Source of the DNA: an uncultured Christensenellaceae bacterium
Lineage (GTDB): Bacteria; Bacillota; Clostridia; Christensenellales; UBA3700
Assembly (NCBI GenBank): GCA_944380295.1
Contig: CALWHE010000001.1
Location: 1,172 to 65,171 of the forward strand
DNA length: 64,000 bases
Reading direction: 5' to 3'
Part shown: positions 9,958 to 53,191 of the stretch, piece by piece
How the letters are laid out: every line of letters begins with the position of its first letter
Position numbering within the stretch: the stretch's first letter is position 1
The notes under the pieces: generated by a model
Told to the model about the DNA's origin: nothing
Database searches by the model: none
What the model saw: only the letters and a program-made list of their open reading frames with translations
Translations under genes and position numbers: made by a program

Positions 9958-11675
9958 TAGAAATACCGCGCAGCTGCCTTTATTATCTGGAAGCCTGCCG
10001 TGAGGCGGAGCTGAAAGAAGATCATCCCACCGCCTTGCGCATGCTGGGGCTGGCGCTGCATTATGCGGATAATTCCGACGACGAGTTCGAGTGCATGGCG
10101 GAAAAGCTGCGCATTTTCGATCTGTTGGGCGCGGACGTGCCCGCCGTGTGCTACGAATCCATCGCGCGGCGCGCGGACGGGGACGACATGTATATGGCGC
10201 TTTTCAACAACGCCGTGGTGCATAAAAACGCGGAACAGGCGGCTTATTATCTCGACATTTTGGAATCGGATGACGAAGTTCCGCTCATCACCGCCGTGGA
10301 GCACGGCAAAGCGAAAGAGGACGAAGGCTTGGCGCGCGTGAACAAGCTGATAGCGGGGCTGGAACGCGAATACCGCATGTCGGACATCGGCTTTGCCGAC
10401 GCGGAAGAGGAATACGTGGGCAAGGTTTTGGAAAAAGCCGTATCCCTGCTCATCGCCTCGCACGGCAAGGAGATGAGCGGCGTGGAAGAGGCGCTGCAAC
10501 TGCGCACAGACAGCCCCAAACTGAAAGAGAAGATCAACGAAGTGCTGGCGCAATGCGCGGAGATAGCGGCGGACAGGGCGGATACGCGCGGCATATACGA
10601 GCGGCTTTTGCCCCGCGCCTCTTCCCAGCTCACCGTGATGTGCGCGGGGTGCATGTCGCAGGCGGTGCGGGAAGACGAACGGTTGCTGAGCGCATATGAA
10701 GAGGCGCTCTGCGCCGCGGTGGAGGGCAAACAGCTCACCGCGCGCCAGAAGTGCATTGCCGGCTTCACCTTTTTGGAGCGCGGCAGGGCGCAAAAGGCGC
10801 TGGACATACTGGAAGGGTGCGACGTGTCCCTGGCGGACATCTTTGCGCGCCGCGTTTATATCGCCGCGCTCTTTGCGCTGGGCGAGGAGGAAAAGCGCGC
10901 GCTCGACATGTTGGAAGACACCCTGCTTTTGGAAGAATACGAAGACAGGCTGGTTTGGGAGTTTTATCACCACGCGGGCAGGGAAGCGTGCCTGAAATTC
11001 GGCGACAACATATATTCGTCCGTGCCGCGCGCGGCAATGGAAGAGGCGGAGTCGCTCACGGGCGCGGAGCTTAAAGCTCTGGTGAGCAGCCCTTACGGCA
11101 GATATTTGGCGGAGAGCGTGGCGCACATGTCGCCCCCGGGCTTTTTGCAGCGCGACGTATACAGGCACATTTTTTGCATTTACACCGATTTTCACCCGCG
11201 CGCGGCGCTCAAACTGCTCTACGACCACGAGGTAGATCTGACGGTGAAACGCGCCGTTCTGCACCGCTTTTTATATTGCAACGACGTGTATGAAGTGAAA
11301 AAGGCGGTGTTCATGACCTCGCCCGACCGCAACATCACCGTGGAAGACGAGGGCTACGTTTACCGCAACGACGTCATCTTTGACGAAGAATTCGACGAGT
11401 GGCCCGACCGCGTGCGCGCCGCCGCCTGTTCCGCGGCGGTGGACTGCTGTTTTTATAACAATTATCGGGAAGGGGAGATCTTTGCCGCGATCAAACAGGT
11501 CTATGAAAAAACGCGCCATATGCGCGGCGTGGTCACTTTCAACACCGTTTACCGCGCCGTTGTGCTCACGCTTAATCCCGATATAAGAGATTTTCTCTGC
11601 ATCACCGGCATGGAGCGCTCGGAAATGCGCAAGATAGAGGCGGTGGCGAAAAAATTCGGGATAGAGATCAAGTGA
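9954..11675 (+). CDS. hypothetical protein, 573 aa, no recognisable family
   Basis: ATG overlaps the hslO stop (ATGA). Codon usage looks like neighbouring genes. Composition appears predominantly helical and Leu/Ala/Glu-rich. Confidence 0.6.
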   Translation: MIEIPRSCLYYLEACREAELKEDHPTALRMLGLALHYADNSDDEFECMAEKLRIFDLLGADVPAVCYESIARRADGDDMYMALFNNAVVHKNAEQAAYYLDILESDDEVPLITAVEHGKAKEDEGLARVNKLIAGLEREYRMSDIGFADAEEEYVGKVLEKAVSLLIASHGKEMSGVEEALQLRTDSPKLKEKINEVLAQCAEIAADRADTRGIYERLLPRASSQLTVMCAGCMSQAVREDERLLSAYEEALCAAVEGKQLTARQKCIAGFTFLERGRAQKALDILEGCDVSLADIFARRVYIAALFALGEEEKRALDMLEDTLLLEEYEDRLVWEFYHHAGREACLKFGDNIYSSVPRAAMEEAESLTGAELKALVSSPYGRYLAESVAHMSPPGFLQRDVYRHIFCIYTDFHPRAALKLLYDHEVDLTVKRAVLHRFLYCNDVYEVKKAVFMTSPDRNITVEDEGYVYRNDVIFDEEFDEWPDRVRAAACSAAVDCCFYNNYREGEIFAAIKQVYEKTRHMRGVVTFNTVYRAVVLTLNPDIRDFLCITGMERSEMRKIEAVAKKFGIEIK

Positions 11676-11676
11676 T

Positions 11677-11866
11677 GTCCTGCGCAAGGGCGCAATGAGC
11701 GATAAGCGAAGAAATGCGCCCTTGCTTCGGACGTGAAATTTTTGCGCAGATATAAGTGAGCGGTAAGCGAACATATCTTCTGCGCAAAAGTGAAATGTTT
11801 TTGCTTTATGAAGCAAAAACGTGAAATGTGCCCTCAAACCGCAAGCGACGAGAGGGCACGTGAAAT
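11677..11866 (-). repeat. core unit C1 (ATTTCAC dialect)
   Basis: GTGAAAT at 11733, 11790, 11821 and 11860 on the plus strand. h4-h3-h2-h1 in reverse. Confidence 0.9.
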
Positions 11867-12305
11867 GCACGACGATACAGCTCCGCGCTCGTCGTGCGTG
11901 GCGGCTGGGAGCGCGGGGCGCTCCATCCCTAATCAAGCCTTGAAGTAACTTGTTCGTCTATCCGGCTAATCTCTTCACAATGCTTACACAGCAAAATATA
12001 ATAAAGCGCGGGCAGCGTGACGCTGCACCCTTTATATGCTTCGCAGTAACGGAACCGTCGGTTATCGAGGCTCTTCGAACTAATATTTGTTGGGTATATA
12101 ACGATACTAACGGCATGACCATTCACACAATTATGCATTTGGAAATAAGGGTGCAGCGTCACGCTGCCCTGGCAGGCGCTGTTAAGGGTGCGCGGCTGTA
12201 TCGACTTTCTGTCGCTCTTACTATGTTTATAACATTTAATTTGATGTGCCCACAGCACCGCAACGTCCGCGATGCGCCGTGCTATGCACGGCAGTATGAG
12301 CGGGC

Positions 12306-12496
12306 ATTTCACGTGCTCTTTCGTCGCGGAGCGGTTTAAGAGCACATTTCACGTTTTTGCTTTGTAAAGCAAAAACATTTCACTTTTGCGCGGAAGTAAT
12401 GTTCGCTAGCCGCTCACATATATCCGCGCAAAAATTTCACATCCGGAGCAAGGGCGCATTTCTTCGCTTATCGCTCATTGCGCCCTTGCGCAGGAC
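12306..12496 (+). repeat. core unit C2 (ATTTCAC dialect)
   Basis: Four ATTTCAC linkers. h1 allele GTGCTCTT/AAGAGCAC. Confidence 0.9.
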
Positions 12497-12520
12497 ATAA
12501 AGGGGTGCAGCGTCACGCTG

Positions 12521-12608
12521 CCCGGGCAGGCGCTGTTAAGGGTGCGCGGGAGAGTGATGGATTTGCGTGCAGGTTTGGACGGCGGGGGCGCAGGCAATAC
12601 TCTTGCGG
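12521..12608 (+). repeat. module LH, 5' half only (tandem partial duplicate)
   Basis: Near-identical to 12643-12730. Confidence 0.85.
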
Positions 12609-12642
12609 CTCATAATGATATGCTGTTTCGATAACTATTAAT

Positions 12643-12807
12643 GCCGGGCAGGCGCTATTAAGGGTGCGCGGGAGAGTGATGGATTTGCGTGCAGGTTTGG
12701 ACGGCAGGGGCGCAGGCAATACTCTTGCGGTATTGTCAAGCCCCCGCCGTTCAAAGATGTGCGTAAAGACGCACTCTCCCGCGTGCCCTTGATAGCGCCT
12801 GCCCGGC
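12643..12807 (+). repeat. module LH (165-nt long hairpin, 36-bp basal stem)
   Basis: GCCGGGCAGGCGCTATTAAGGGTGCGCGGGAGAGTG pairs with CACTCTCCCGCGTGCCCTTGATAGCGCCTGCCCGGC. All three non-Watson-Crick positions are T:G or G:T. Confidence 0.85.
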
Positions 12808-12833
12808 AAAAGAAAAAAACTTTTTCATTTCTC

Positions 12834-12863: not shown

Positions 12864-12998
12864 GTGCAAGACAGCAAAGCAGAAGCACTTTCTCACCTGC
12901 CGCGCGGGGCGCAGGCACGGTCAATAAAAAGCCATATCGGCGGTGAAAGTATTGTCTGCTTTTGCCGCCTATTTTATTACCTGAGGGAGGGACTACCT

Positions 12999-16959: not shown

Positions 16960-17450
16960 TGCGTATCTTAGGCATAGACCCCGGACTTGCCATTGTCGGT
17001 TACGGCGTGATAGACAGTGAAAAGGGCAAAAACAGCGTGGTGGATTACGGCGTGATCACCACGCCCAAAGAGGAAAAACTGCCCGCGCGCCTGCACCTCA
17101 TCTATGACGGTCTTTCCGCATTGATAGACAAATTCAAGCCCGACTGCATGGCGATAGAGGAGCTGTTTTTCACCAAAAACATCACCACGGGCATCGCCGT
17201 GGCGGAAGCGCGCGGCGTTATCCTGCTGTGCGCCACGCACAAGCTGGGGCACATCTTCGAGTATACGCCCAACCAGATCAAAGAAGCGCTCACCGGTTAC
17301 GGCAAAGCCACCAAAACGCAGATGCAGTTCATGGTCACCCGCCTTTTGGGACTTACCGCCGTGCCCAAGCCGGACGATGCCGCCGACGCTTTGGCGGTGG
17401 CGCTCACGCAGGCGCAGACGGGGAGGTTATCGGGCATTTTCCGAGTTTAA
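16959..17450 (+). CDS. ruvC: crossover junction endodeoxyribonuclease RuvC
   Basis: MRILGIDPGLAIVGYGVI plus the catalytic acidic residues. 163 aa. Confidence 0.9.
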   Translation: MRILGIDPGLAIVGYGVIDSEKGKNSVVDYGVITTPKEEKLPARLHLIYDGLSALIDKFKPDCMAIEELFFTKNITTGIAVAEARGVILLCATHKLGHIFEYTPNQIKEALTGYGKATKTQMQFMVTRLLGLTAVPKPDDAADALAVALTQAQTGRLSGIFRV

Positions 17451-17515
17451 GCGAAAAACAAAAGGGATAGGGCGGATATGGTTTTATGCCATATCTGCCC
17501 TTTTGTTTTTCGCTT
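17449..17515 (+). repeat. module T (66-nt hairpin starting in the ruvC stop codon)
   Basis: AAGCGAAAAACAAAAGGG...CCCTTTTGTTTTTCGCTT. Confidence 0.9.
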
Positions 17516-18240
17516 GCTGAAAGACAACCCCGGCATTCGCAATCGATATTATCATTCCAACATACTTTTATTCAGGGTGCAGCACCGCACTGCTCCGCCT
17601 CTTTGCCGTGAGATCGATTGCTTGAGCCGCGGTTTTCTCTCTTTTTGCGGGCGGCGTAATCTCGTATCGCACTTGGTCTTACCGCAAAAATTCACTCTTT
17701 CCGCCGCCGCGGGCGCGGCGCGCAAGGCAGCCGCCTTGCCCAAGGTGCGCTCACCGAAAAGCGCGGTTTTCGGTGGCGGGATATTTGATAAGCGAAAGAC
17801 AACCCCGGCATTCGCAATCGACATATCATTCCAACATACTTTTACTTGGTGTGCAGCGTTAAGCTGCCTCAGCCACTCTGCCATGAAATCGATTGCTTGA
17901 GCCGTGGTTTTCTCTCTTTTTGCGGAACGGAATAACGCTGTTGTGCGGAGAGATATGTATATTAAAGAATACGCTCTTGCAGGGGAATAAGACAGCGTGG
18001 TCACCACGCCACTCTTTCCGCCCTCATTCGCTTCACAAGTTCCGCTCATTCGGAAAATGCGCACGGCGCATTTTAGAGGTGACGCTTGGCAAAAGTGTGA
18101 TTTTGCCGCGCTTTATTACACTTTATCAGGGTGCAGCGTTACGCTGCCGTTCCGCGCTCCGGGTGCAGCGCTATACTTTGATAGCGCCGCAGGCAACCGC
18201 CACGTTTGCGATGCGCCGCTTTGCGGCAGTATGAGCGGAC

Positions 18241-18434
18241 ATTTCACGTGCCCTCTCGTCGCTTGCGGATTGAGGGCACATTTCACGTTTTTGACAACGA
18301 GTTGGCAAAAACATTTCACTTTTGCGCAGCAGATATACATTCGCTTACCGCTCATTTATATCTGCGCAAAAATTTCACGTCCGGAGCGGCGGCGGATCTG
18401 CTTGGAATAATTGTTATTCCGCCGCCGCGCAGGA
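18241..18434 (+). repeat. core unit C3 (ATTTCAC dialect)
   Basis: Four linkers. h4 allele GGCGGCGGA/TCCGCCGCC. Confidence 0.9.
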
Positions 18435-18440
18435 TATCAC

Positions 18441-18469
18441 TTGACATTCCCCCCGCTCTGTATTATCAT
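18441..18469 (+). promoter_or_regulatory. candidate ruvAB-queA promoter giving a leaderless or near-leaderless mRNA
   Basis: TTGACA, 17 nt, TATCAT. The ATG at 18477 lies 7 nt after the -10 and has no SD. Confidence 0.5.
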
Positions 18470-18476
18470 AATATAT

Positions 18477-19073
18477 ATGTATTCTTACATAACGGGAACG
18501 CTTGCCGGCATGGAAGAGGGCAAGGTGATATTGGACAACAACGGGATAGGTTACGAGCTGAACGTATCCTCGTTCACCTTGTCGCGCGTCGGAGCATTGG
18601 GGAGCAGGGTGAAAATCTTCACGCACCTGGGCGTGACGGACGACGCCATGCGGCTTTACGGCTTTGCCACGGAAGAAGAGCGCGCCATGTTTTTGAAGCT
18701 GATCACGGTTTCCGGCATCGGACCCAAGGTGGCTTTGCAGATACTCTCGGGCATGGACGTGCGCACGCTGGCGCTTGCCATTGTCAATTCTGACGCCAAG
18801 GCGCTGGCGCGCATCAAGGGCATAGGCAAAAAAACCGCCGAACGCGTTATTCTGGAACTGCGCGAGCGGGTGGAGGAAGAGGCGGTAGACAGCGGTTCGC
18901 TCGCCGGCGTATCGGGGGCAAGTCCGATGGGTCAGGAAGCGGCGGCGGTGCTGGTTTCTCTGGGACTTTCGCGCACAGACGCGGTAAAAGCGGTGAACAA
19001 CGTGCTCTCCGGCGGCAAAGCCAAAACGCTGGAAGAGGTGATAACCTTGGCGCTTAGGAGTGTGGACAAATAA
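18477..19073 (+). CDS. ruvA: Holliday junction DNA helicase subunit RuvA
   Basis: Start moved to ATG 18477. [10 protein letters not shown]-terminus and GIGPKVAL / [10 protein letters not shown] helix-hairpin-helix motifs. Confidence 0.88.
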
Positions 19074-21253: not shown

Positions 21254-21862
21254 GCTGAAAGACAACCCCGGCATTGGAGATAGGCGCCGAGTGAAAGTGC
21301 CGTGCGATAAAGCATTTTAATGTTCTAACGATATCGGCGCACAGCACTTTGCGCCTACGTGTGAGGGGCAAACCCGACACGCTCCGCTGCGGTTTTCCCC
21401 TCGTTTTGCGGCGAGATATAGGAAAGCGTGCAAGCCTTAGCCGCAAAACTTCACCCCTTTCCGCCGCCGCGGGAGCGGCGCGCAAGGCAGTCGCCTTGCC
21501 CAAGGTGCGCTCACCGAAAAGCGCGGTTTTCGGTGGCGGGAAGTTGCACTTTTAGTTTGGGGTGCAGCGGCACGCTGCCGCTCCACAAGTTCCGCTCAAT
21601 CGGAAAATGCGCACGGCGCATTTTAGAGGTGTGCTCACCGAAAAGCGCGGTTTTCGGTGGCAGGATATTACAACATGTTTTTCAGTTTTTGGCAAGGGCG
21701 TTCTGTCCACTAAAGTGGACACTTCAAAAGGAGAGCAAAGGTATTGTCTGTTTATTAGATTTGTCCACTTTTGTGGACAGCTGTTTTTGTGGATAGCGGT
21801 ATATTCCAATAGCGCCGCAGGCAGCCGCCACGCACGACGAGCGCGGAGCTGTATCGTCGTGC

Positions 21863-22051
21863 ATTTCACGTGCCCTCTCGTCGCTTGCGGTTTGAGGGCA
21901 CATTTCACGTTTTTGCCTTGCAAGGCAAAAACATTTCACTTTTGCGCGGAAGTTATGCTCGCTGGGCGCTCACATATATCCGCGCAAAAATTTCACGTCC
22001 GTAGCGGCACGGCGCACTTTCATTTATAGATTTTGCCGTGCCGAGCAGGAC
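21863..22051 (+). repeat. core unit C4 (ATTTCAC dialect)
   Basis: Four linkers. h4 allele GGCACGGC/GCCGTGCC. Confidence 0.9.
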
Positions 22052-22196
22052 ATAAAGGGGTGGAGCGCCCCGCGCTCCCGTCACGCTGCCGATTTTGTGG
22101 ACAGCTGTTTTTGTGGATAGCGGTATATTTCAATAGCGCCGCAGGCAGCCGCCACGTCTGCGATGCGCCGTGCTGTGCGCGGCAGTATGAGCGGAC

Positions 22197-22389
22197 ATTT
22201 CACGTGCCCTCTCGTCGCTTTGCGGTTTGAGGGCACATTTCACGTTTTTGCCAATGTGTTGGCAAAAACATTTCACTTTTGCGCAGCAGTATACGTTCGC
22301 TTACCGCTCACTTGTATCTGCGCAAAAATTTCACGTCCGGAGCGGCACGGCACTCTCTCGCTTATAGATTTTGCCGTGCCGCGCAGGAC
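22197..22389 (+). repeat. core unit C5 (ATTTCAC dialect), representative copy
   Basis: Linkers at 22197, 22237, 22270 and 22328. Hairpins h1 22204-22236, h2 22244-22269, h3 22277-22327, h4 22335-22389. Confidence 0.9.
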
Positions 22390-22396
22390 ATTTTTC

Positions 22397-22425
22397 TTTA
22401 CTTTTTCCGCATTTTCCGTTAGAAT
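22397..22425 (+). promoter_or_regulatory. candidate tgt promoter, near-leaderless
   Basis: TTTACT, 17 nt, TAGAAT. The ATG at 22435 lies 9 nt after the -10 and has no SD. Confidence 0.4.
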
Positions 22426-22434
22426 GATATCGTT

Positions 22435-23553
22435 ATGTTCAAGTATGAAGTTTTACACGTATGCAAGCAAAGCGGCGCGCGCGTGGGCAGGCTGACCACG
22501 CCGCACGGTGAGATTATCACGCCGGTATACATGCCCGTGGGCACCAATGCGGGCGTAAAAGGGCTGACTCCGGAGCAGGTGGAGCAGGCGGGCGCGCAGA
22601 TCGTGCTTGCCAACACATATCATCTTTATCTGCGCCCGGGCAGCGGGATCGTGGAGCGTGCGGGCGGCTTGCACAAGTTCATGAATTGGAATAAGCCCAT
22701 TTTGACGGACAGCGGCGGTTTTCAGGTGTTTTCTCTCTCGTCCATGCGCAAGGTGACGGACGAGGGGGTGAAGTTTTCTTCGTATTACGACGGTTCGGCG
22801 CACTATCTCACGCCGGAAGACGCCATCAAGATAGAAGAGCAGTTGGGCGCGGACATCGTGATGGCGTTTGACGAGTGCACAGCCGCGGGCACGAATTACC
22901 GCAAATCGGCGGCGGCGATGCAGCGCACTCTGCAATGGCTGGAACGCTGCAAAAATGCGCACAAGCGGGAAGATCAGATGCTTTTCCCCATCGTGCAGGG
23001 CAATCTTTTTGAGGATCTGCGCCTGGAAAGCGTGAAAGCCACCGCGCCTTACGCGCGCTGCGGCATGGCGATAGGCGGGCTGTCCGTGGGAGAGCCGAAA
23101 GAGGTCATGTATAAAATGCTGGACGTGATGCGCCCTTATTATCCGCAGGACCAGCCCATATATCTGATGGGCGTGGGTTCGCCCGACTGCATAGTGGAAG
23201 GGGTGCTGCGCGGCGTGGACATGTTCGACTGCGTGCTGGCAACGCGCATGGCGCGCAACGGCGCGGCGTTCACGCGCAGGGGCAACATCACGGTGCGCAA
23301 CGGCAAATACAAGGAGGACTTTGCGCCGGTGGAAGAGGGGTGCGACTGTTATTGCTGCCGCAATTATTCGCGCGCCTATGTGCGGCATATGCTCAACGTG
23401 GGGGAGATAGGCGGCGGACAGCTCTTGTCCGTGCACAATATCCGCCACCTCACGCGGCTGACGGAAGAGATAAGGCAGGCGATATGGGAAGACAGGTTCG
23501 GCGACTTTGTGCGCGACTTCCGCGCCGGTTACGATTGGAGCGTAAAAGGCTGA
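22435..23553 (+). CDS. tgt: queuine tRNA-ribosyltransferase
   Basis: 372 aa. TDSGGFQV and zinc site CDCYCC...H typical of Tgt. Confidence 0.93.
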   Translation: MFKYEVLHVCKQSGARVGRLTTPHGEIITPVYMPVGTNAGVKGLTPEQVEQAGAQIVLANTYHLYLRPGSGIVERAGGLHKFMNWNKPILTDSGGFQVFSLSSMRKVTDEGVKFSSYYDGSAHYLTPEDAIKIEEQLGADIVMAFDECTAAGTNYRKSAAAMQRTLQWLERCKNAHKREDQMLFPIVQGNLFEDLRLESVKATAPYARCGMAIGGLSVGEPKEVMYKMLDVMRPYYPQDQPIYLMGVGSPDCIVEGVLRGVDMFDCVLATRMARNGAAFTRRGNITVRNGKYKEDFAPVEEGCDCYCCRNYSRAYVRHMLNVGEIGGGQLLSVHNIRHLTRLTEEIRQAIWEDRFGDFVRDFRAGYDWSVKG

Positions 23554-24893: not shown

Positions 24894-25199
24894 CGTGACG
24901 CTGCACTCTGATATGCTCTGAAATTGCAAAAAAATAGCAACGCATCATAACGCTTCGCACAAATAATATGTATTGACATGCGGACGTTTCACGTGCCTTT
25001 TCCGTGAGTGCGTAAGCGTTTTGCATTGCGGTCACATATATCGGGGTGGAGCGCCCTGCGCTCCCCGCCACGCACGACGAGCGCGGAGCTGTATCGTCTT
25101 TCTGTCGCTCTTGCTATGTTTTGTAACATTCTATTTAATGTGCCCACAGCACCGCCACGTCCGCGATGCGCCGTGCCGTGCACGGCTGTATGAGCGGAC

Positions 25200-25389
25200 A
25201 TTTCACGTGCCCTCTCGTCGCTTGCGGTTTGAGGGCACATTTCACGTTTTTGCCTTGTGAGGCAAAAACATTTCACTTTTGCGCGGAAGTAATGTTCGCT
25301 AGCCGCTCACATATATCCGCGCAAAAATTTCACGTCCGGAGCCGCCGAACACACTTGCGCTTATTTGATTTTGTTCGGCGGCGCAGGAC
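25200..25389 (+). repeat. core unit C6 (ATTTCAC dialect)
   Basis: Four linkers. h4 allele CGCCGAACA/TGTTCGGCG. Confidence 0.9.
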
Positions 25390-25393
25390 ATAA

Positions 25394-25540
25394 AAGGGTG
25401 CCCAGAAGGGCGATGGATTTGCGTGTGATTTTGGACAAAGGTGCCGCAGGCAATACTCTTGCGGTATTGTCAAGGCGCATTTGTGCAAAAGCGCGCGTAA
25501 AGACGCACTCTCATGCGTGCCCGCATAGCGTCTGCCCGGC
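25394..25540 (+). repeat. module LH, copy with degenerate 5' arm
   Basis: Shares GATGGATTTGCGTG...GCAGGCAATACTCTTGCGGTATTGTCAAG...GTAAAGACGCACTCTC with the other copies. Confidence 0.8.
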
Positions 25541-25554
25541 AGAGAAAAAAATTC

Positions 25555-25583
25555 TTGCTTTTTTTCTTTATATCATTTATAAT
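25555..25583 (+). promoter_or_regulatory. candidate scfAB promoter
   Basis: TTGCTT, 17 nt, TATAAT. Confidence 0.5.
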
Positions 25584-30240: not shown

Positions 30241-30267
30241 AAAAAAGCGGCGCGAGCCGCTTTTTTT
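30241..30267 (+). terminator. rho-independent terminator after secF
   Basis: A6-GCGGC-GCGA-GCCGC-T7. Confidence 0.8.
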
Positions 30268-30472
30268 GTCCTGCGCGGCACGGCAATGAGCGTAAGCGAA
30301 AGGATGCCGTGCCGCTCCGGACGCGATATATTTTGCCTTTGCAATCATTTACATAAGTCAAACACTCCTAACGGCAAAATGCGATATGTCGGCTTTGCCG
30401 ACGCGATATGTCCTGCGCGGCGGCGGAATAACATTTGCCCCATCGGATCCGCCGCCGCTCCGGACGCGATAT
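30268..30472 (-). repeat. core unit C11 (ATATCGC dialect)
   Basis: GCGATAT at 30323, 30381, 30403 and 30466 on the plus strand. Confidence 0.9.
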
Positions 30473-30569
30473 ATTTTGCCGTGCCAAACATTTAGAATAA
30501 GCGTAAAAGCACCAAACGGCAAAATGCGGCGGTATCTTGCGGCATTCTGCCGCAAATCAAAATCATATA

Positions 30570-30721
30570 TTGTTGTTGCGAAGAGTAACGCTTATCGGTA
30601 TTTTATATTGCTGCGAAGCATATCAAGGGTGCAGCGTCACGCTGCTTGTTGTTGCGAAGAGTAACGCTTATCGGTATTTTATATTGCTGCGAAGCATATC
30701 AAGGGTGCAGCGTCACGCTGC
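30570..30721 (+). repeat. perfect tandem duplication, 76 bp x2, inside island I5
   Basis: TTGTTGTTGCGAAGAGTAACGC...GGGTGCAGCGTCACGCTGC occurs twice without a mismatch. Confidence 0.9.
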
Positions 30722-30923
30722 CGCCGCAGGCAGCCATTACATTTTGCCGTTGACATATCTTATGTGCTTGTTTATGATGATAATTATGCCGGACAGGCGC
30801 TATGCGGGCACGCAGTAGAGCGCGGCTTTACGCACATCTTTGGACGGTGGGGTATTCAAATAGCGCCGCAGGCAGCCGCCACGTCCGCGATGCGCAGTGC
30901 TATGCACGGCAGTATGAGCGGAC

Positions 30924-31115
30924 ATTTCACGTGCCCTCTCGTCGCTTGCGGATTGAGGGCACATTTCACGTTTTTGCCTTGCTAGGCAAAAACATTTCAC
31001 TTTTCGGCAGAAAGAGTAGCGGCGCTTGTGCAACCGCTATATCTGCCGAAAAATTTCACGTCCGGAGCGGCGGCGGATTTGTTTGGAATATTGTTTTTCC
31101 GCCGCCGAGCAGGAC
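30924..31115 (+). repeat. core unit C7 (ATTTCAC dialect)
   Basis: Four linkers. h3 allele TTTTCGGCAGA/TCTGCCGAAAA. Confidence 0.9.
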
Positions 31116-31126
31116 ATAACGCCGCC

Positions 31127-31155
31127 TTGCATTCGGCGGAGATTTGTGTTAGAAT
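31127..31155 (+). promoter_or_regulatory. candidate recJ operon promoter, near-leaderless
   Basis: TTGCAT, 17 nt, TAGAAT with upstream TGT. The ATG at 31167 has no SD. Confidence 0.45.
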
Positions 31156-31166
31156 ATATATAATTT

Positions 31167-33416
31167 ATGGAAAGCGCAAGAGAAAGAGAGATAATAAACA
31201 GCCTGCTGGCGGAGCGGGGGATAAAGAGCGAGGAAGAAAAGATAAATTTCTTTTCCCCGTCGCTCGGCGCGCTCACGCCGCTCAAAGCGTATCAGGGCTT
31301 GGCGCAGGCGGCGGAGCGGGTGAAGCAGGCGCTGGACGAGCGGCAAAAGATAGTCATATACGGCGATTACGACTGCGACGGGCTGTGCGCCACCGCCATT
31401 TTATACGAATATCTCACTTCCCGCGGCGCGGACTGCGGCTACTATATCCCCAACCGGCACACAGAGGGATACGGGCTTAATTTCGACGCGCTGGCGGACA
31501 TAGCGGAGCGCGAATTTCCCGATCTCATCATCAGCGTGGACTGCGGCGTGACCTCTGTGGACGAGGTGCGCTTTGCCGTGGAGGATCTGGGCATGGACGT
31601 GGTGGTGACCGACCATCATGAGCCGGGCGCGGAGCTGCCGGACTGCGTGGTGTTCGACCCCAAACTCAGTGAAAACGTCTGCCGCGATCTGTGCGGCGCG
31701 GGCGTGGCGCTCAGGCTGGTGGAAGCGCTGGGCGGACGCGCGGCGGCGGAGAATTTTTTGGACATTGCCGCCATCGCCACGGTGGCGGACGTGGTGCCGC
31801 TCACGGGCGACAACCGGGTGATAACCTCTTTGGGGCTGGTGCAGCTGAACAAGCGGCGCAGGCGCGGGCTGAACATGCTCATGGACAGCTGCGTGAAAGG
31901 GCGGGTCACCGCGCGTGACATCGCCTTTAAGCTGGGACCGCGCATAAACGCCACGGGCAGGGTGGACACGGCATATGAAACGGTGGCGCTCTTTTATGAA
32001 AAAGACGCCTTTGTGCTGGAAACGCTGGTCAAGAACATCAACGAATGCAACGAGCGGCGCAAGCAGTTCACGCGCGATCTGACGGCGGCATGCATAGAAA
32101 AACTGCAAGAAGAAGACATTTCGCAGCGGCGCGTGCTGGTGCTCTACGACCCTTATTGGGACGACGGCGTGCTGGGCATAACCGCCTCGCGCCTGGTGGA
32201 GCTTTACGACCGCCCCGTGATCCTCATCACAGACAGCGGCAAAGAAGCGAAAGGCTCCGGCAGGAGCGTTGAAGGCATAGACATCCTCAAATGCGTGAGT
32301 GCCTGTTCCTCTTATCTGATCCGTTGCGGCGGGCACAAGCGCGCCTGCGGACTGACGATAAAAAAGTCGCTCATCAAGGAATTTGCCTACATCCTCGACC
32401 GTTTTATCGCCACGGAATATCCGCATTTTCAGCCGCACTTCAAGCGCCGCACGGGCATAGAACTTGACTTGCCCGTGAGCGCGGAATTTGCCTTGCAGCT
32501 GCAACGCTTCGAGCCGTGCGGCGAGGGAAATCCGCGCCCCGTGTTCAGCGCCTGTTTGGAGCGCGGCGCGTTCACGCGCATGGGCGGCGGCGCGCACCTC
32601 AAAGAAAACGTGGGCGAGGGGTGCGAGATGGTGCACTTTTTTGCCGGAGAAAACGTGCAGTGGTATAACAGCGCGGCAAAAAAGGATTTTGTGTTCAACG
32701 TGGAGTATTCCCTCTTCAACAATATGGAGCGCGCCACGCTGGACGTGACGGCGGCATATCCTCTGCAAGCGCCGCCCGGACAGCTGCTGCTGCTTTCTCA
32801 TCTGGCTTTGAGCGCGGGCGGAGAGGAGAGTTCCGTGTTCGAGCCGCAGCCGATAGGGGCGGAGGAGATAGCCGCGCTTAAAGGCGGAGTCTGCCTGCTG
32901 GCATGCTCGCAGGAGGGCGCGCAGGCGGCGGAGCGCTTTGCCGGGCAGTTTATCCGCGCCGTGGGTAAGCCTTATACGCCTTGCCCTTACGACACCGTTT
33001 TATACTGTCCCGACCCGCAGGCGGATCTTGCCGGGTTCGCGCACGTGGTCTTTATGCAAAAACCGCTGCTTGCGGGCGGCATAGACCTGATGAAATTGGG
33101 CAAAAACTGCCGCGTGCATTATCTGGACGTCAAGCCGCGCGGCTTGCTCGTCCCGTCCTATGCGGAGCTGGGGGAGGCATACAAAGGCGTGCGCGCGGCG
33201 CTGCGCGTGAAGGCGGGCGCGAGCGCGGCGGGGCTTTACAACGCGGCGGGAAAAGCGCTGGGCTGGGAAAAATTTATCGCCGCCTTGTTTACCTTTGTCG
33301 ATTTAGGTATTATAATATATAAAGAAGGCGGCTTCGAGCTGCCCGAACAAGTGCAAAAACGCGAATTGTCCGCAAGCAGGTTATTCAGGCGTTTGCAAGA
33401 GGAATACGATGGATAA
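31167..33416 (+). CDS. recJ: single-stranded-DNA-specific exonuclease RecJ
   Basis: DHH-family motifs IYGDYDCDG, SVDCG and VTDHH. 749 aa. Confidence 0.9.
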   Translation: MESAREREIINSLLAERGIKSEEEKINFFSPSLGALTPLKAYQGLAQAAERVKQALDERQKIVIYGDYDCDGLCATAILYEYLTSRGADCGYYIPNRHTEGYGLNFDALADIAEREFPDLIISVDCGVTSVDEVRFAVEDLGMDVVVTDHHEPGAELPDCVVFDPKLSENVCRDLCGAGVALRLVEALGGRAAAENFLDIAAIATVADVVPLTGDNRVITSLGLVQLNKRRRRGLNMLMDSCVKGRVTARDIAFKLGPRINATGRVDTAYETVALFYEKDAFVLETLVKNINECNERRKQFTRDLTAACIEKLQEEDISQRRVLVLYDPYWDDGVLGITASRLVELYDRPVILITDSGKEAKGSGRSVEGIDILKCVSACSSYLIRCGGHKRACGLTIKKSLIKEFAYILDRFIATEYPHFQPHFKRRTGIELDLPVSAEFALQLQRFEPCGEGNPRPVFSACLERGAFTRMGGGAHLKENVGEGCEMVHFFAGENVQWYNSAAKKDFVFNVEYSLFNNMERATLDVTAAYPLQAPPGQLLLLSHLALSAGGEESSVFEPQPIGAEEIAALKGGVCLLACSQEGAQAAERFAGQFIRAVGKPYTPCPYDTVLYCPDPQADLAGFAHVVFMQKPLLAGGIDLMKLGKNCRVHYLDVKPRGLLVPSYAELGEAYKGVRAALRVKAGASAAGLYNAAGKALGWEKFIAALFTFVDLGIIIYKEGGFELPEQVQKRELSASRLFRRLQEEYDG

Positions 33417-38267: not shown

Positions 38268-38317
38268 TATATTAACGTGGGGACAGGACCGCGTAGTTTA
38301 TGTTAAGAGGTTCGATT

Positions 38318-41300
38318 ATGAGGGAAAGCGTAAAGTTGCATTCGTCTTTCAAATTCGTGGTGGCGATGATTTTGGTGGCCGCGCTTTGCGTCGCGGCTTT
38401 TTCTCCGCTCTTCGCGCCCGCGTCCGCCGCGGCGGAAGCCTGGCAGGGCACGGCGACGTATCAGCTCGGCAACGGCTACACACAGGATACAGTCATTCCC
38501 GGCGCGTATAAAGTGGTATGCGACGGCGTTACATACGATTCCGGCGTGCCCGAAGTCTTGGGCGAGATAGCGCCGAATGCGGGCTATAAATTCGTCGGCT
38601 TCCAAGATAACGGCGGCACTTTGGTGGCTGAGTTCGACGGCGACGATACCTTTACCGTGACGGAAGCGTTCATCAATGCGACCGGCACTTATACTCTGAT
38701 CCCCGCCTTCGAAGTGATAGAATACAAAATAACTTACGATCTGAACGTGCCGAGCGGCGTGACGGCGCAGCCCTCCAACCCCAACACGGCAAAAACTTAC
38801 ACGGTCGAGGATAACCCCGTCGCTTTGGCGGTGCCCACGCTGGCGGGCTGGGAATTCGGCGGCTGGCAGCTGCCGAACGACGACATCGTGCAGCAGATAG
38901 ACTCTTCCCTGATAGCTGCTCTGACAGCGGACGGCGAGCTGCCCGGTAACGAGTTGGTTCTTACGGCGCAGTGGGCGGAACAGACCTTCACGCTCACCGT
39001 GATGATAGATCAGACCAAAATAGAATACGAAGCCATCCCCGGCGTGTCGATCGGTAACTATATCGGCGCTCTCACTCCCGAAGACAAGGGCGACTCCGAA
39101 CAATTTTTGGGCTGGGAGATGGACGGCAAGATCATCGATGTGATGACCACGCTCATGCCTGAGAAAAACACCACGGTCAACGCCAAATTCGGCATTCCCT
39201 CAGTTCACGTGAGCTTTATCGTTAAAAAAGCCACGGTGGAAGACGCAAACAAGTTCGATACAAAAAATGATATATTTATCGAAGTCACGGAAGGAACATA
39301 TACTCCCGAAGCGCTTGCCGCGCAAGCGGGTAGCAAGCTTAACTATACCGGATTCACCCGCACGTCGGTCACCTGGGAAGACGGCACCGATGCAGCCAAA
39401 GAGGTGAGCGGTTCGTGCTCCGTAGTGTGCATTTATGAGCGCGACCAATGCAATCTGCTCATCCATTATCGTTACGACCTCAACGGCGACGGCATTCCCG
39501 ACGACATAGACGGCGACGGCGAGGCGGACATCGCGGCGTTCGATGTGCGTGACAGCGGCGTTTACGGCGACAGATACGAAAAGTCTTCTCCGCAGATAAA
39601 GGGCATGCAGGCGCTCACGGGCACGGTGGCGGGCATATATGACAGAGATTTCACGGAAGTGACCGTGCTTTACACCACCGCTCCGGACAAGCGCAAGGCG
39701 GAACTGGGCGGCATAGGCGGCACGGTCACCAATGACGAAGGCGGCTTGATAGACGCCGCCGTCAGCGTCACCTGGGATCCGGCGGCTGCGGGCGCGCACA
39801 GTGCCATGGCGGCAGGCACGGGCAACGAAGCTTACGGCGTGCTCTCCGTGGAGATAGCGGAAGCGGAAGGCGCGGTGTTCGGCGCCCGCGGCGTTTACAC
39901 TCTCACCGTGGACCTGGGCGAGAGCATGGCGGACAAGACTTATTATAATGTATATAAAATAAATGACGACGGCACATACGCGCCCATCTCCGTCAGATAC
40001 AGCGGCAGCACTCTGGTGCTCACGGTAGACGCCGCCGGCGATTATCTGGTCACCGGCACGCCCGTGCAGGACAACACGCTGCTTTGGGTGCTCATCGCGC
40101 TACTCATCCTGCTGCTCATCCTGCTGATAGTGCTGTTGCTCGTCCTGTTGCTGCTGAGCAAAAAGACGGTCAGCTTTGAAGTGAACGGCGGCGAAGAAGT
40201 GGATAAGATAAAAGCCAAGAAGGGCAACGTGATAGAACTGCCTCTGCCCGAACGCGAAGGTTACGAATTTGCCGGCTGGTATCTGGACGAAGAGTGCACG
40301 ATCCCCGCGCCGCTCGAACCGGGAGAGGCGGACAAAGACGAAGCGCCCGCCGAGGACAAAAAGGGCAAAAAGGATAAAAAAGCCAAAAAGGACAAGAAAG
40401 GCAAAAAGGCGGCGCCCGTAGAAGCGCCCGCGGAAGAAGCCCCTGCGCAAGAAGCCCCTGCGGAAGAAACGCCGGCAGAGGAAGCGCCCGCGGCAGAAGC
40501 CCCGGCGGACGAGGCTCCGGCAGAGGAAACCCCTGCCGAAGAAGCTCCCGTGGAAGCGCCTGCGGAAGAAGCCCCGGCAGAAGCGCCTGCGGAAGAAGCC
40601 CCGGCAGAAGCGCCTGCGGAAGAAGCCCCGGCGGAAGCGCCTGCGGAAGAAGCCCCGGCGGAAGCGCCTGCGGAAGAAGCCCCGGCGGAAGCGCCTGCGG
40701 AAGAAGCCTCGGCAGACGAGGCTCCCGCAGAGGAAGCGCCCGCGCAAGAGCAAAGCGAAGAGATCAGGATATATGACGAGCCGGACGGCAAAGACGTCAC
40801 CGACGAACAAAAAGGAGGAGGCACCACCGATACCATGAGTTCCAAACGCGCCAAAAAGGCAAAAAACAATAAGCCGGCGGCTCCCGCCGCGGCAGAGGAA
40901 CAAGCCCCTGCGGAAACTCCCGCCGAGGAAGTCCCTGCCCAAGCGCCCGCGGAAGAAACTCCCGCAGAGGACGCCCCCGCGGCAGACGCGCCCGTGGAAG
41001 AAACTCCCGCCGAGGACGCCCCCGCGGCAGACGCTCCCGTCGAGGAAGTCCCCGCGGAAGAAGCGCCGGCGGAAGTCCCCGCGGAAGAAGTTCCCGCAGC
41101 TGACGCCCCCGCAGAAGCTCCTGCGGAAGACGCTCCCGCAGCGCCCGCTGAATTTGTGTTGCCGGAGGTCATGCGCTTCAAGGTGACGGGCAGCGTAAAA
41201 CTTTACGCCAAGTGGAAAGAGATAGTGCCGGAAGAGGCGCACGCGGTCAACTTTGTCGCCTGCGGCGTTATCCAGAGCACGGTCAAAACGATGGGCAAAG

Positions 41301-42949
41301 AGCCTGTTGCCGTGCCCGCGGCGCCCGCGTTGCCCGGATACGCCTTTGCCCGCTGGATCTTCAAGGACAAAAAGGGAGAAGAGGTCGCCTTTACGGAAAG
41401 CACGCTGGCGGACAAATATCTGCTGGAAGATCTCAACGTCATCGCCGATTACATCAAGGTGGTGCCCAAGATCAGATTTTATGCCTGCGGCGTGTTGCAG
41501 CGCACGCTGGAAGTGCAGGGCATCTGCGCCGTGCAGCTTCCCGAAGCGCCCGCGCTGGAAGAATACCGCTTCTGCAACTGGTATACCCTGCAAAACGGCG
41601 CGCAGGTGCCGTTCACGGGCAGAGAGACCGCGCAGAGTTATCTGACGGAAGATCTGAACGTCTATGCCGAATATATCAAGCCGGTGCCCGTGGCGGAAGC
41701 GCCCGAACCTCACCTCATCACCTTTATGGCGGACGGCGAGGTGGTGGCTACCATAGAAACCGCCGGCAGGGACGCGCTCGATCTGCCCGCCGCGCCCGTC
41801 AAGGAAGGCTTTGTCTTCCGCGGCTGGTTCACGGACGAAGAAAAGCACAACGAGGTGGTGGAAGAGAGCAGTTATGTGGATAAGGATCTTGAAGAGGATC
41901 TGATCCTTTACGCCTTCTATGAAGAAGAGAAGGAGCCGGAAAAGGAAGAAGATTTTGCCGCGGCTGCCATCTTGCCGGAAGAAGACGATGAAGAGCCGGA
42001 GGAAGAGCCGGAAGAAGAGGACGAAACCCCCGAAGTGGAAGAGAAAGAAGACGACGAAGAAGAGCCGGAAGAAGAGCTCGAACCGGGCGCGCCCAGGATG
42101 ATCACGGCGGCGGACGCCATCAAGCGCCGCACGTCCACCATGCGCGGACGTCTGAGATACGGTTCGGACGTGAACAAAGCCATATACGAAGAGCTGGTCA
42201 ACCACCTGTTGCAGTTCAAGAACGTGTCCCGTTCGCTCACCAACAGGGCGGACAACTTCAAGAGCAAGGGCGCGCTGCTTGCCAAGATCACGCTCACGGG
42301 CAAAACGCTCAAACTCTATCTGCCTCTGGACGCTGAGCAATACGATTACGACAAGTATCATCAGCTCATCACGGAAAAGAAGGGCTATGAAGAAGTGCCT
42401 TTCACCATCAAGGTCAAATCCAACCGCGGCTTGAAATATGCCAAGGAACTGATAGACGAAGCCATGGCGCAGGCGGGCGTGGAACGCAAGAAGAAGGCGG
42501 GCGAGAAGAAGAGCTTCAAGGAGCTGATCCTGCTGCAAAAGGGCAGCCTGCTCATCAAGAACAAAAAGACGGAAAAGCTGCGCTCGCGCGTAGACTCGCA
42601 GGACGCCAACGCCCAGCTCACGGACGCGGAGGCGCAGGAGCTGATCAGGATCAAATACGTGCCCGTGTCCGACGAGGTGAAAAAGACGGCTTTCGTGGGC
42701 TTGGACAAGATAGAAGATCTTTACAACGACTGCGACATGGTCAACATCAAAACGCTGCGCAAGCGCGGGCTGGTCAAAGACGAGCATAACCGCGTGAAGA
42801 TAATCGGCGGCGGCACGCTGACCAAATCGCTCAAAGTTTATGCGGACGAATATTCGCTCACGGCGGTCAAGATGATCGTGCTTTTGGGCGGCAAAGTGGT
42901 CAAAAACGTGGAAGAAAGCGTGGAAAAACCGGAAGAGGGCAAGCAATAA
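38318..42949 (+). CDS. about 1543-aa repeat protein: signal peptide, Listeria-Bacteroides (Flg_new-type) repeats, central hydrophobic helix, further Flg_new-type repeats, Pro/Ala/Glu tandem repeats, acidic tract, uL15-like C-terminal segment
   Basis: Start moved to ATG 38318 behind AAGAGG. Repeat signatures such as GYKFVGF, LAGWEFGGW, REGYEFAGWY, LPGYAFARW and KEGFVFRGWF. Terminator at 42971-42996. Confidence 0.75.
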   Translation: MRESVKLHSSFKFVVAMILVAALCVAAFSPLFAPASAAAEAWQGTATYQLGNGYTQDTVIPGAYKVVCDGVTYDSGVPEVLGEIAPNAGYKFVGFQDNGGTLVAEFDGDDTFTVTEAFINATGTYTLIPAFEVIEYKITYDLNVPSGVTAQPSNPNTAKTYTVEDNPVALAVPTLAGWEFGGWQLPNDDIVQQIDSSLIAALTADGELPGNELVLTAQWAEQTFTLTVMIDQTKIEYEAIPGVSIGNYIGALTPEDKGDSEQFLGWEMDGKIIDVMTTLMPEKNTTVNAKFGIPSVHVSFIVKKATVEDANKFDTKNDIFIEVTEGTYTPEALAAQAGSKLNYTGFTRTSVTWEDGTDAAKEVSGSCSVVCIYERDQCNLLIHYRYDLNGDGIPDDIDGDGEADIAAFDVRDSGVYGDRYEKSSPQIKGMQALTGTVAGIYDRDFTEVTVLYTTAPDKRKAELGGIGGTVTNDEGGLIDAAVSVTWDPAAAGAHSAMAAGTGNEAYGVLSVEIAEAEGAVFGARGVYTLTVDLGESMADKTYYNVYKINDDGTYAPISVRYSGSTLVLTVDAAGDYLVTGTPVQDNTLLWVLIALLILLLILLIVLLLVLLLLSKKTVSFEVNGGEEVDKIKAKKGNVIELPLPEREGYEFAGWYLDEECTIPAPLEPGEADKDEAPAEDKKGKKDKKAKKDKKGKKAAPVEAPAEEAPAQEAPAEETPAEEAPAAEAPADEAPAEETPAEEAPVEAPAEEAPAEAPAEEAPAEAPAEEAPAEAPAEEAPAEAPAEEAPAEAPAEEASADEAPAEEAPAQEQSEEIRIYDEPDGKDVTDEQKGGGTTDTMSSKRAKKAKNNKPAAPAAAEEQAPAETPAEEVPAQAPAEETPAEDAPAADAPVEETPAEDAPAADAPVEEVPAEEAPAEVPAEEVPAADAPAEAPAEDAPAAPAEFVLPEVMRFKVTGSVKLYAKWKEIVPEEAHAVNFVACGVIQSTVKTMGKEPVAVPAAPALPGYAFARWIFKDKKGEEVAFTESTLADKYLLEDLNVIADYIKVVPKIRFYACGVLQRTLEVQGICAVQLPEAPALEEYRFCNWYTLQNGAQVPFTGRETAQSYLTEDLNVYAEYIKPVPVAEAPEPHLITFMADGEVVATIETAGRDALDLPAAPVKEGFVFRGWFTDEEKHNEVVEESSYVDKDLEEDLILYAFYEEEKEPEKEEDFAAAAILPEEDDEEPEEEPEEEDETPEVEEKEDDEEEPEEELEPGAPRMITAADAIKRRTSTMRGRLRYGSDVNKAIYEELVNHLLQFKNVSRSLTNRADNFKSKGALLAKITLTGKTLKLYLPLDAEQYDYDKYHQLITEKKGYEEVPFTIKVKSNRGLKYAKELIDEAMAQAGVERKKKAGEKKSFKELILLQKGSLLIKNKKTEKLRSRVDSQDANAQLTDAEAQELIRIKYVPVSDEVKKTAFVGLDKIEDLYNDCDMVNIKTLRKRGLVKDEHNRVKIIGGGTLTKSLKVYADEYSLTAVKMIVLLGGKVVKNVEESVEKPEEGKQ
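40562..40712 (+). repeat. intragenic perfect tandem repeat, 27-nt unit x5 plus a partial unit (AEEAPAEAP)
   Basis: GCGGAAGAAGCCCCGGC(A/G)GAAGCGCCT repeated head-to-tail. Units differ only at one synonymous position. Confidence 0.9.
40952..41041 (+). repeat. intragenic tandem repeat, 45-nt unit x2 (EETPAEDAPAADAPV)
   Basis: Two adjacent 45-nt units differ at 3 synonymous positions. Confidence 0.85.
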
Positions 42950-50982: not shown

Positions 50983-50986
50983 GAAT

Positions 50987-51831: not shown

Positions 51832-51836
51832 ATTTC

Positions 51837-51863: not shown

Positions 51864-51872
51864 ATATCTGTT

Positions 51873-53150: not shown

Positions 53151-53191
53151 GCGAAAGTGTGCCGTGCCGCTCCGGACGTGAATTTTTCTCT

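Follow-up and report, generated by a model that had tools for sequence, protein, structure and literature searches.

The closest described relative of the repeat considered here is Gut-1 (RF01706), a motif reported in 2010 from human-gut metagenomes only, classed as an RNA and left without a proposed function (Weinberg et al., 2010; PMC2864571). A literature search for follow-up work found no later paper, and Gut-1 has been an orphan Rfam family since then, known only from human-gut metagenome fragments. Its model consensus reads UGAAAU-hairpin-GUGAAAU-hairpin-GUGAAAU-hairpin-GUGAAAU; ATTTCAC becomes GTGAAAT when reverse-complemented. In a 64,000-nt stretch of DNA from an uncultured Christensenellaceae bacterium (contig CALWHE010000001.1 of assembly GCA_944380295.1; hereafter the window), intergenic units built of hairpins are joined by a heptamer, which is ATTTCAC in nine main (M) units and ATATCGC in two others (D units), D30 at 30268-30472 on the minus strand and D53 on the plus strand. 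D30 is best explained as one D-type copy of a lineage-specific, high-copy intergenic mosaic repeat of a Gut-1-like class, in which near-perfect palindromic hairpin cassettes form arrays punctuated by a short polar heptamer. It is held with moderate confidence that the ATATCGC dialect is one of two alleles of a single degenerate heptamer within this Gut-1-like mosaic repeat, and that the repeat is best read as a DNA-level element resembling repetitive extragenic palindromes (REP) and bacterial interspersed mosaic elements (BIME).

Both D units have the order hA - L' - h4 - L' - GTCGGCnnnGCCGAC - L' - (hA-like or h3) - L' - h4, with L' standing for ATATCGC. The D30 core (30268-30472, minus strand) comprises four junction heptamers (30466-30472, 30403-30409, 30381-30387 and 30323-30329) and four hairpins, namely an h4-type hairpin with a class A stem (GCGGCGGCGGA...; 30410-30465) common to main units U18 and U30b, the mini hairpin GTCGGC-AAA-GCCGAC (30388-30402), an hA-like hairpin (30330-30380) and, outermost and adjoining the secF terminator, an h4-type hairpin with a class B stem (30268-30322). 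The 5' hairpin hA (ATTTTGCCG...CGGCAAAAT; 30473-30525) stands before the first junction. On the plus strand, D53 begins with its own hA (53720-53771), and its core (53772-53977) has junctions at 53772-53778, 53835-53841, 53857-53863 and 53916-53922, which separate an h4 of class D, the mini hairpin GTCGGC-GCA-GCCGAC (53842-53856), h3 (53864-53915) and an h4 of class B (53923-53977), the last followed by an ftsK promoter-like region. All inter-junction intervals fold as strong hairpins, and the invariance extends past the heptamer to the adjoining stem feet, which are equally invariant (126 of 255 aligned columns). Loops of the h3 and h4 types have in common the motif TTCGCTTA(C/T)CGCTCA (for example at 18340-18356, 22352-22372 and 53944-53958), the TTATCGC part of which looks like an ATATCGC junction.

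The eight junction positions bear out the first-pass annotation, which had described ATATCGC at all four linkers of both units. Its count of eight out of eight is thus correct, but not its independence, as D30 and D53 share their architecture by descent and do not represent eight events. Likewise, its statement that the h3 and h4 hairpins of the main dialect are kept is right for h4, found twice per unit, and wrong for h3 in D30, where the third slot is hA-like. That these units reflect chance or an assembly artefact is hardly credible. Over the whole window ATATCGC shows only a mild excess (17 copies against 8.8 +/- 2.9 in shuffled sequences, reached by 1 of 100 shuffles), which is the one point in favor of chance; against it, the number of four-copy clusters within 151 nt expected by chance is about 6e-5 per window and two such clusters, bracketing strong hairpins, are seen, while some 2 Mb of unrelated loci contain no comparable arrays. 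Both units are reproduced 100% identically in independent assemblies from other samples, and the artefact reading is already refuted.

The nine main units have the order h0 - ATTTCAC - h1 - ATTTCAC - h2 - ATTTCAC - h3 - ATTTCAC - h4. Of 42 ATTTCAC copies, 35 lie in repeat islands. There are seven islands, all intergenic (11653-12830, 17448-18444, 21436-22413, 24987-25562, 30262-31122, 50986-51854 and 53121-53983), which hold the 11 units and make up 9.9% of the window. In a permissive Rfam scan each of the nine main units matched Gut-1, without exception on the other strand than that used by the first-pass annotation and at 22.3-37.6 bits, below the gathering score of 50 bits, which no window unit attains. 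The top match was U30b (30924-31115, plus strand), the inverted partner of D30, with 37.6 bits on the minus strand, where the model places four GUGAAAU and three stems on 30919-31061. D30 and D53 gave no Gut-1 match at E<=10 in this covariance-model scan.

As in Gut-1, hairpins in the window units are separated and flanked by a conserved heptamer, with four heptamers bracketing three hairpins; both come from gut Clostridia-type sequences, and the Gut-1 seed contains GUGAUAU and GCGAUAU variants as well as inverted half-arrays. The units therefore show the Gut-1 architecture of at least three hairpins, each flanked by the heptamer, when seed-attested variants are allowed, but not its small hairpins (4-8 bp stems with 3-5 nt loops), into which only the 15-nt GTCGGCnnnGCCGAC cassette fits. 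At 24-56 nt, the window hairpins have three to ten times the length of those of Gut-1, and their loops are conserved; h3, h4 and hA measure 50-56 nt, and the insertions of 14-40 nt that they carry relative to the model account for the sub-threshold scores. A further difference from Gut-1 is that each window unit comprises five typed slots and that amplification has produced 11 copies in 64 kb, grouped in mosaic islands. High copy number, dialects and strain turnover of Gut-1 are described neither in the original report (PMC2864571) nor elsewhere in the literature searched.

The heptamer variants of the window have counterparts in the published seed alignment of Gut-1, which counts GUGAAAU 54 times, GUGAUAU 21, GCGAUAU 2, AUUUCAC 33, AUAUCAC 52 and AUAUCGC 2 (PMC2864571), and which also holds the AUGAAAU/AUUUCAU type. 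GCGAUAU, the reverse complement of ATATCGC, is thus a seed-attested spelling. A seed array is typically a pair of inverted half-arrays; among the half-arrays tallied, roughly every second one has at least one deviant junction, and some arrays combine GUGAAAU, GCGAUAU and AUAUCAC. Two orthologous seed loci differ by precisely one module, a 21-nt hairpin plus GUGAAAU, which shows that heptamers are the exact points of module gain or loss; this fits either slippage between the direct repeats flanking a hairpin or site-specific insertion. Several seed arrays lie directly 3' of a tRNA 3' end plus intrinsic terminator (PMC2864571, supplementary file 95). In these arrays the 5' arm of the first hairpin and its upstream heptamer recur as a complement at the array centre, which would allow an alternative long-range helix enclosing the left half-array.

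Related arrays were also found in other genera and in phages. The 29-mer ATATCGC-GTCGGCnnnGCCGAC-ATATCGC, formed in D30 by the mini hairpin and its two flanking junctions, is present in three other Clostridia metagenome-assembled genomes (chance expectation in that collection about 3e-4), where it belongs to arrays of mini hairpins with ATATCGC, ATTTAGC or AATTCAT(G) junctions, some arrays being mixed, for example with TTTCAC and then ATATCGC. Arrays of this kind, with ATATCGC, ATATCGA or ATATCAC junctions, are also present on phage contigs, between the terminase and portal genes and beside the major head gene. Mini-arrays of the ATATCGC, ATATCGA and AATTCAT types from these phage and Clostridia loci match Gut-1 at 31-41 bits (32-41 for the ATATCGC phage mini-arrays). 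Based on the junction variants across genera and phages, the family-wide junction is a degenerate polar heptamer, ATWTCRY on one strand, which is RYGAWAU in the Rfam orientation; its core A-T-.-T-C-.-. is conserved throughout. In relatives at 68-74% RecJ identity the 50-107 nt secF-recJ spacer contains no such units, from which the expansion of the repeat appears to be recent.

The meaning of the two dialects can be judged from other strains of the species. Comparison loci were reached via exact-protein look-ups of flanking genes, and five further same-species loci through a protein-database search with the D53 translation, which retrieved spurious open reading frames annotated over units, both at different loci and in other strains. 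The comparison sequences are metagenome assemblies throughout, in which repeats of this kind can be mis-joined, and the structures relied on are those seen in at least two independent samples. Among the key ones, L382 and L384 both have a D unit in place of U11, and L384 and L385 share one fusion architecture, found at two loci. The species is absent from the genome and JGI metagenome collections, where specific junction patterns gave nothing real; in genome-collection scans, the pattern ATNTCNCGTCCGGAGC and gapped h4 ends were too weak, as nearly all matches were chance hits in GC-rich genomes.

The window differs at 12 positions from three assemblies that match it to at least 99.95%, all 12 in islands and 10 of them in two hairpins, h2 of U11 and the first h4 of D53, the latter with a compensatory stem change. 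In a strain at 98% identity (L259) D30 is unchanged, h1-h3 of U30b are swapped en bloc with h0, h4 and all junctions identical, and U21 (21863-22051, plus strand) is absent. Further replacements were observed in loci that overlap the window in L382, L384 and L385, where the flanking genes are 97-99% identical. At the U11 locus (11677-11866, minus strand, with four ATTTCAC, in the window), L382 and L384 carry a D-type unit (three ATATCGC and one ATATCGT) in place of the main unit, and the gene-side junction between GCGCAGGAC and ATCACTTGATCTC is identical. In another strain, a D-type unit occupies the U53a locus instead of the ATTTCAC unit, and the D53 orthologue of that strain has a different h3 and ATTTCAC as its fourth junction. 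The locus of U18 (18241-18435, plus strand), a main unit upstream of the ruvA promoter, contains in L384 a fusion array, h0-ATTTCAC-h1-ATTTCAC-h2-ATTTCGC-h3-ATATCGC-h4-ATATCGC-mini-ATATCGC-hA-ATATCGC-h4, and that of U51 (51590-51831, plus strand, with an h1 of 81 nt) contains in L385 a mixed unit with ATTTCAC, three ATATCGC and ATATCAC. In the window itself, U18 is followed by a fifth, terminal heptamer, ATATCAC, at 18434-18440. Among the sister-strain loci, one D unit has lost its first junction, and in one h4 variant 'perfection' has led to a full palindrome (GTCCTGCGCC...GGCGCAGGAC), the adjoining junction having become ATATCGT, which lengthens the stem. The junction census of same-species loci, a sample of about 26 units, gave 61 ATTTCAC, 37 ATATCGC, 4 ATATCGT, 1 ATTTCGC and 1 ATATCAC, so that all four combinations of the two variable heptamer positions exist.

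The dialects are thus interchangeable at the same loci. The first-pass annotation had reported that no mixed unit occurs, which is true of the window, where no unit combines both heptamers, and not of the sister strains; it had proposed that many units with mixed linkers would refute its idea of two coexisting specificities, and such units were found at the U18, U51 and D53 loci as well as in many half-arrays of the Gut-1 seed. In that proposal each heptamer would be recognized by its own trans-acting reader, for example RAYT/TnpA-like (RAYT, REP-associated tyrosine transposase) or RNA-binding paralogues, and homogeneity of the unit would be required for function. It is in line with the strict separation of the 35 internal ATTTCAC and 8 ATATCGC junctions of the window, which never share a unit, with the strong bimodality of junctions at the species level and with the frequent use of one dialect in both inverted halves of Gut-1 and phage arrays. 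The bimodality, however, is expected from two sites only 3 nt apart. In addition, mixed and fusion units occupy promoter-proximal loci in sister strains, D units replace M units at identical loci, both one-step intermediates (ATTTCGC and ATATCAC) exist, seed arrays mix all three dialects, and both dialects of the window use the same cassettes for h3 and h4, down to identical stem feet. Nor did the suggested check for two paralogous partner proteins yield a candidate gene in the 64-kb window or the flanks reached. Two specificities are therefore unneeded, though not disproved, and two dedicated readers are considered very unlikely.

Under the preferred interpretation of the dialects as two alleles of one heptamer, ATTTCAC and ATATCGC would differ at two tolerated positions and, as these are only 3 nt apart, each allele would be inherited as a block. 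In this reading, whole unit architectures (M: h0-h1-h2-h3-h4; D: hA-h4-mini-X-h4) are copied and exchanged entire, and hairpin cassettes turn over through short events confined to palindromes. The latter look like ectopic gene conversion or a switch of template, the 'perfection' of palindromes, and deletion by slippage from one flanking heptamer to the other. Homogeneity within units would then follow from the descent of whole architectures together with the confinement of conversion to palindromes, and mixing would occur block-wise, by fusion or by a conversion tract crossing one junction. The claim that the heptamer is functionally read is upheld as far as constraint goes, since it is the conserved inter-hairpin sequence of Gut-1 and recurs in other genera and phages; the step from concerted change to two coexisting specificities is not supported. 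Probably, something reads the conserved heptamer core or it is copied by the array-building mechanism; a reader, whatever it is, would tolerate W at position 3 and R at position 6.

Several points weigh against this interpretation. Hybrid heptamers are rare within the species (2/106), and the block-wise mixing is compatible too with some selection for local homogeneity. Inverted half-arrays in Gut-1 seeds and phages are usually of one dialect, so pure descent is not a full explanation. As all comparison data are metagenome assemblies, the repeats they contain could be mis-joined. Regarding the DNA-level part of the reading, the rarity of G:U pairs discussed below could reflect a recent origin, and the Rfam curators rated Gut-1 as certainly an RNA.

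Pairing in the stems is near-perfectly Watson-Crick, with 441 Watson-Crick pairs, 2 G:T and 1 A:C in the window, plus conserved G.A/A.G mismatches in h4, and 200, 2 and 1, respectively, in the Gut-1 seed; 2 G:T against 1 A:C are too few to choose a strand. Loops of the seed are 82% purine on the ATWTCRY strand, with GAA, AAA and GCA triloops and GNRA-like tetraloops predominating. Stable DNA mini-hairpins typically have C-G-closed triloops of the GAA/GCA/AAA type, cf. d(GCGAAGC). Both strands carry the polar motif, whether in inverted half-arrays or in inverted units. The near absence of wobble pairs and the d(GNA)-type loops favor DNA-level processes and perhaps a DNA-level function.

An RNA-level role is, by comparison, unlikely, whether the arrays would act as a small RNA or a cis-acting intergenic transcript whose hairpins display heptamers to an RNA-binding protein or RNase, or the heptamers of inverted half-arrays would pair with one another, the dialects being covariation. 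Besides the classification of Gut-1 as RNA by Rfam and Weinberg et al. (2010), it is suggested by the minus units, which begin 0-2 nt from upstream stop codons and must be transcribed as 3' untranslated regions, by phage arrays inside late operons beside portal and major head genes, and by the matched dialects of inverted halves (GUGAUAU/AUAUCAC, AUGAAAU/AUUUCAU and GCGATAT/ATATCGC). In turn, G:U pairs are virtually absent from the stems of window and seed, the triloops are of the DNA mini-hairpin type, the polar motif lies on both strands relative to transcription and many arrays lie just past intrinsic terminators. Moreover, island I5 (30262-31122) joins D30 (minus) to U30b (plus) and island I7 (53121-53983) joins U53a (minus) to D53 (plus), inverted halves of different dialects whose heptamers cannot base-pair; on the same grounds the pairing of half-arrays was rejected as the cause of homogeneity.

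The bounds of I7 are perfect 55-bp inverted copies of h4. U53a (53404-53478, minus strand) retains three ATTTCAC junctions with h1 and h2, and its h3 is broken by an insertion resembling a MITE (a miniature inverted-repeat transposable element); beyond the right end of this insertion stand a decayed main-type junction, AATTCAC (53178-53184, minus strand), and the terminal hairpin of the interrupted unit (53123-53177, minus strand), the exact reverse complement of the terminal h4 of D53. What had been described as one 55-nt h4 joined to both linker types is therefore two inverted identical copies, the first of them joined to the decayed heptamer.

A further possibility is that [hairpin + heptamer] modules enter site-specifically at or next to a matching heptamer, in an HUH/IS200-like (3' of a target) or target-duplicating manner, with the dialects as variants of the target or cleavage site. 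Every junction of an array would then go back to the first one or need to match it. The one-module difference between orthologous Gut-1 loci would fit, as would identical junctions between hairpins that are unrelated in sequence within an array, the polar motif with purine-rich loops on the heptamer-sense strand, and inverted half-arrays resembling REPIN/BIME doublets (REPIN, REP doublet forming a hairpin). Slippage deletion between 7-nt direct repeats, however, explains the one-module difference equally, the units of the species have fixed slot orders and are exchanged as blocks, and no transposase, integrase or HUH gene was found near any array examined; insertion of this kind is regarded as decidedly unlikely. 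The architecture is also compatible with palindrome-associated elements derived from IS200/IS605 (PATEs), which have subterminal hairpins and an oligonucleotide recognized by TnpA(Y1), but no TnpA gene occurs in the window or the reached flanks and no excision or insertion junctions were observed. It is rather unlikely that crossover or cleavage takes place at the heptamer through a dedicated single-stranded DNA recombination system of gut Clostridia and phages, which would insert, remove and reshuffle palindromic cassettes at ATWTCRY. If true, this would be an integron-like or REP-RAYT-like system with hairpins as cassettes, the Gut-1 'RNAs' would be DNA substrates and the dialects compatibility groups.

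Among described DNA repeats, REP, BIME and REPIN elements resemble the window units in being high-copy intergenic imperfect palindromes with a short tag beside the hairpin and inverted doublets, found after genes and between co-directional genes, with several sub-families per genome. In contrast, the window hairpins are directly oriented within a unit and not alternating, and their tag is an inter-hairpin 7-mer instead of a 5' GTAG. No GTAG was found; CGTC, the alternative tag and that of the CGTC-tagged repeats (PMC3733652), spans the junction-h4 and junction-mini boundaries (ATTTCA-CGTC-C and ATATCG-CGTC-G), lying within the stem, and is absent at h1, h2 and h3. REP and BIME are known mainly from Proteobacteria, whereas this element belongs to Clostridia and no RAYT gene was seen: no RAYT/Y1 transposase domain (PF01797) is encoded among the genes of the window, its flanks, L381 and L383-L385, and transposase, integrase, Y1/HUH and Nop-domain genes are lacking in the window and about 10 kb beyond.

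A REP-like function is suggested by the position of the units. The h4 hairpin is always outermost: minus units lie directly against the upstream gene's stop codon or terminator, U11 beginning 2 nt past the stop codon of a 573-aa gene, and plus units stop just short of the promoter-like -35/-10 of the downstream gene. This suggests that the arrays act in a REP/BIME-like way at operon boundaries, and that h4, facing a gene end or promoter, serves as a 3'-end hairpin block or insulator. The remaining main units all lie on the plus strand, U12 (12306-12496) as the inverted partner of U11, U22 (22197-22389) upstream of tgt, and U25 at 25200-25389.

Mosaic intergenic repeats are also known from Neisseria, where the neisserial intergenic mosaic elements (NIMEs) consist of RS blocks separated by dRS3 (PMC3733652). 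Like the window islands, NIMEs are blocks punctuated by a short constant repeat, vary strongly between strains by recombination and have no known dedicated transposase; their punctuating repeat is a 20-bp palindrome, however, their variable blocks are not hairpins, and no sequence relationship with the window element was found. In Firmicutes, the pneumococcal BOX elements (boxA-boxB(n)-boxC) are modular hairpin-forming intergenic repeats with a variable number of modules. Unlike the window cassettes, BOX modules are of fixed sequence and have no constant junction heptamer.

Other array systems were considered and rejected. TIGR-Tas arrays, whose loops hold two 8-12-nt spacers flanked by box C/D motifs and which lie beside a Nop-domain Tas gene (PMC12045711), share with the window units tandem hairpins, variable but always palindromic stems and an occurrence in gut bacteria and phages. 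The window loops, in contrast, are of 3-5 nt or of a conserved TTCGCTTATCGCTCA-type, the units are dispersed in many copies, and neither a Tas/Nop-domain gene nor box C/D-flanked spacers are present. CRISPR-like arrays would require 'repeats' of more than 7 nt; moreover, the 'spacers' here are palindromes and cas genes are missing. Integron attC arrays (IntI, cassettes bearing open reading frames, GTTRRRY sites) do not correspond either, as there is no integrase, the cassettes consist of nothing but hairpins and the heptamer is placed between palindromes and not inside them. Omega-type heptad operators are contiguous, while here hairpins of 15-56 nt separate the heptamers.

The window has a G+C content of 55.7% and its genes form housekeeping operons of an uncultured Clostridia lineage (infC-rpmI-rplT, ruvC, ruvAB, queA, tgt, SCIFF, secDF, recJ, relA, ftsK, recA and rny); the nearest RecJ beyond the own species has 74% identity and is metagenome-derived only. 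Promoter-like -35/-10 modules, partly repeated (CTTGACTTTTTCCCGCA...), directly follow h4 at 22390-22437, 31116-31169, 51832-51867 and 18436-18480. In tgt, recJ and an M16 peptidase gene the -10 stands just 9-11 nt before the ATG, without a Shine-Dalgarno sequence, which suggests leaderless or near-leaderless mRNAs with repeat-borne promoters. Elsewhere, a lysine riboswitch (RF00168, 85 bits; 6884-7051, minus strand) was detected upstream of asd-dapA-dapB on the minus strand, a lysine riboswitch being present in locus L001 too, and a sub-threshold ribosomal protein L20 leader (RF00558, 27 bits against a gathering score of 58.7; 12871-12982, plus strand) just 5' of infC-rpmI-rplT.

The MITE-like element measures about 215 nt, has terminal inverted repeats (GCCGGACAGACGCTAT... 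/ ...ATAGCGTCTGTCCGGC) and is present at about 12540-12800 (two copies), 25395-25555, 53190-53355 and, partially, 30768-30800. It lies repeatedly inside unit hairpins, such as h3 of U53a and an hA-type hairpin in island I5, and a truncated junction (..GAGAAAA-ATTCAC or -ATTCGC) directly adjoins its right end. Chimeras of main and D units seem to arise where its copies recombine (locus L383). Island I5 also contains a perfect 76-bp tandem duplication (30570-30645 / 30646-30721), which is a single copy in strain L259. In island I3 a repeated module (21700-21800 and 22090-22125) carries the DnaA-box-like CTATCCACA at 21788 and 22112, together with TGTGGACAG and GTCCAC...GTGGAC palindromes; one-mismatch DnaA boxes number 16 in the window against 6.9 expected, and the relative L260 has a similar GTGTCCACTATAGTGGACAG module. 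In L384 the counterpart of island I2, between ruvC and ruvA (2293-4170 of that locus), harbors an extra gene for a 625-aa Flg_new/DUF6273 protein, indicating that islands are also sites of gene gain and loss. Within the window, a Flg_new-domain surface protein gene (1549 aa; 38300-42949) has internal repeats at 40412-41152, and the length of its product varies among strains (1505-1624 aa in L259, L260 and L262).

The motif class itself was already known from Gut-1, of which the element described here represents an expanded, high-copy form with long cassettes. What is new is that a Gut-1-like element has been amplified as a mosaic repeat that occupies about one tenth of a Clostridia chromosome segment at operon boundaries, that its islands vary between strains of about 98% identity faster than the rest of the region, and that related arrays exist in phage late operons. 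In practice, short-read assemblies break at such islands, which can also give rise to mis-assembled gut metagenomes. The alleles, cassette classes, fusion units and orthologous replacements provide material for finding the reader of the heptamer, and Gut-1 is recast as a REP-like, probably DNA-level element.

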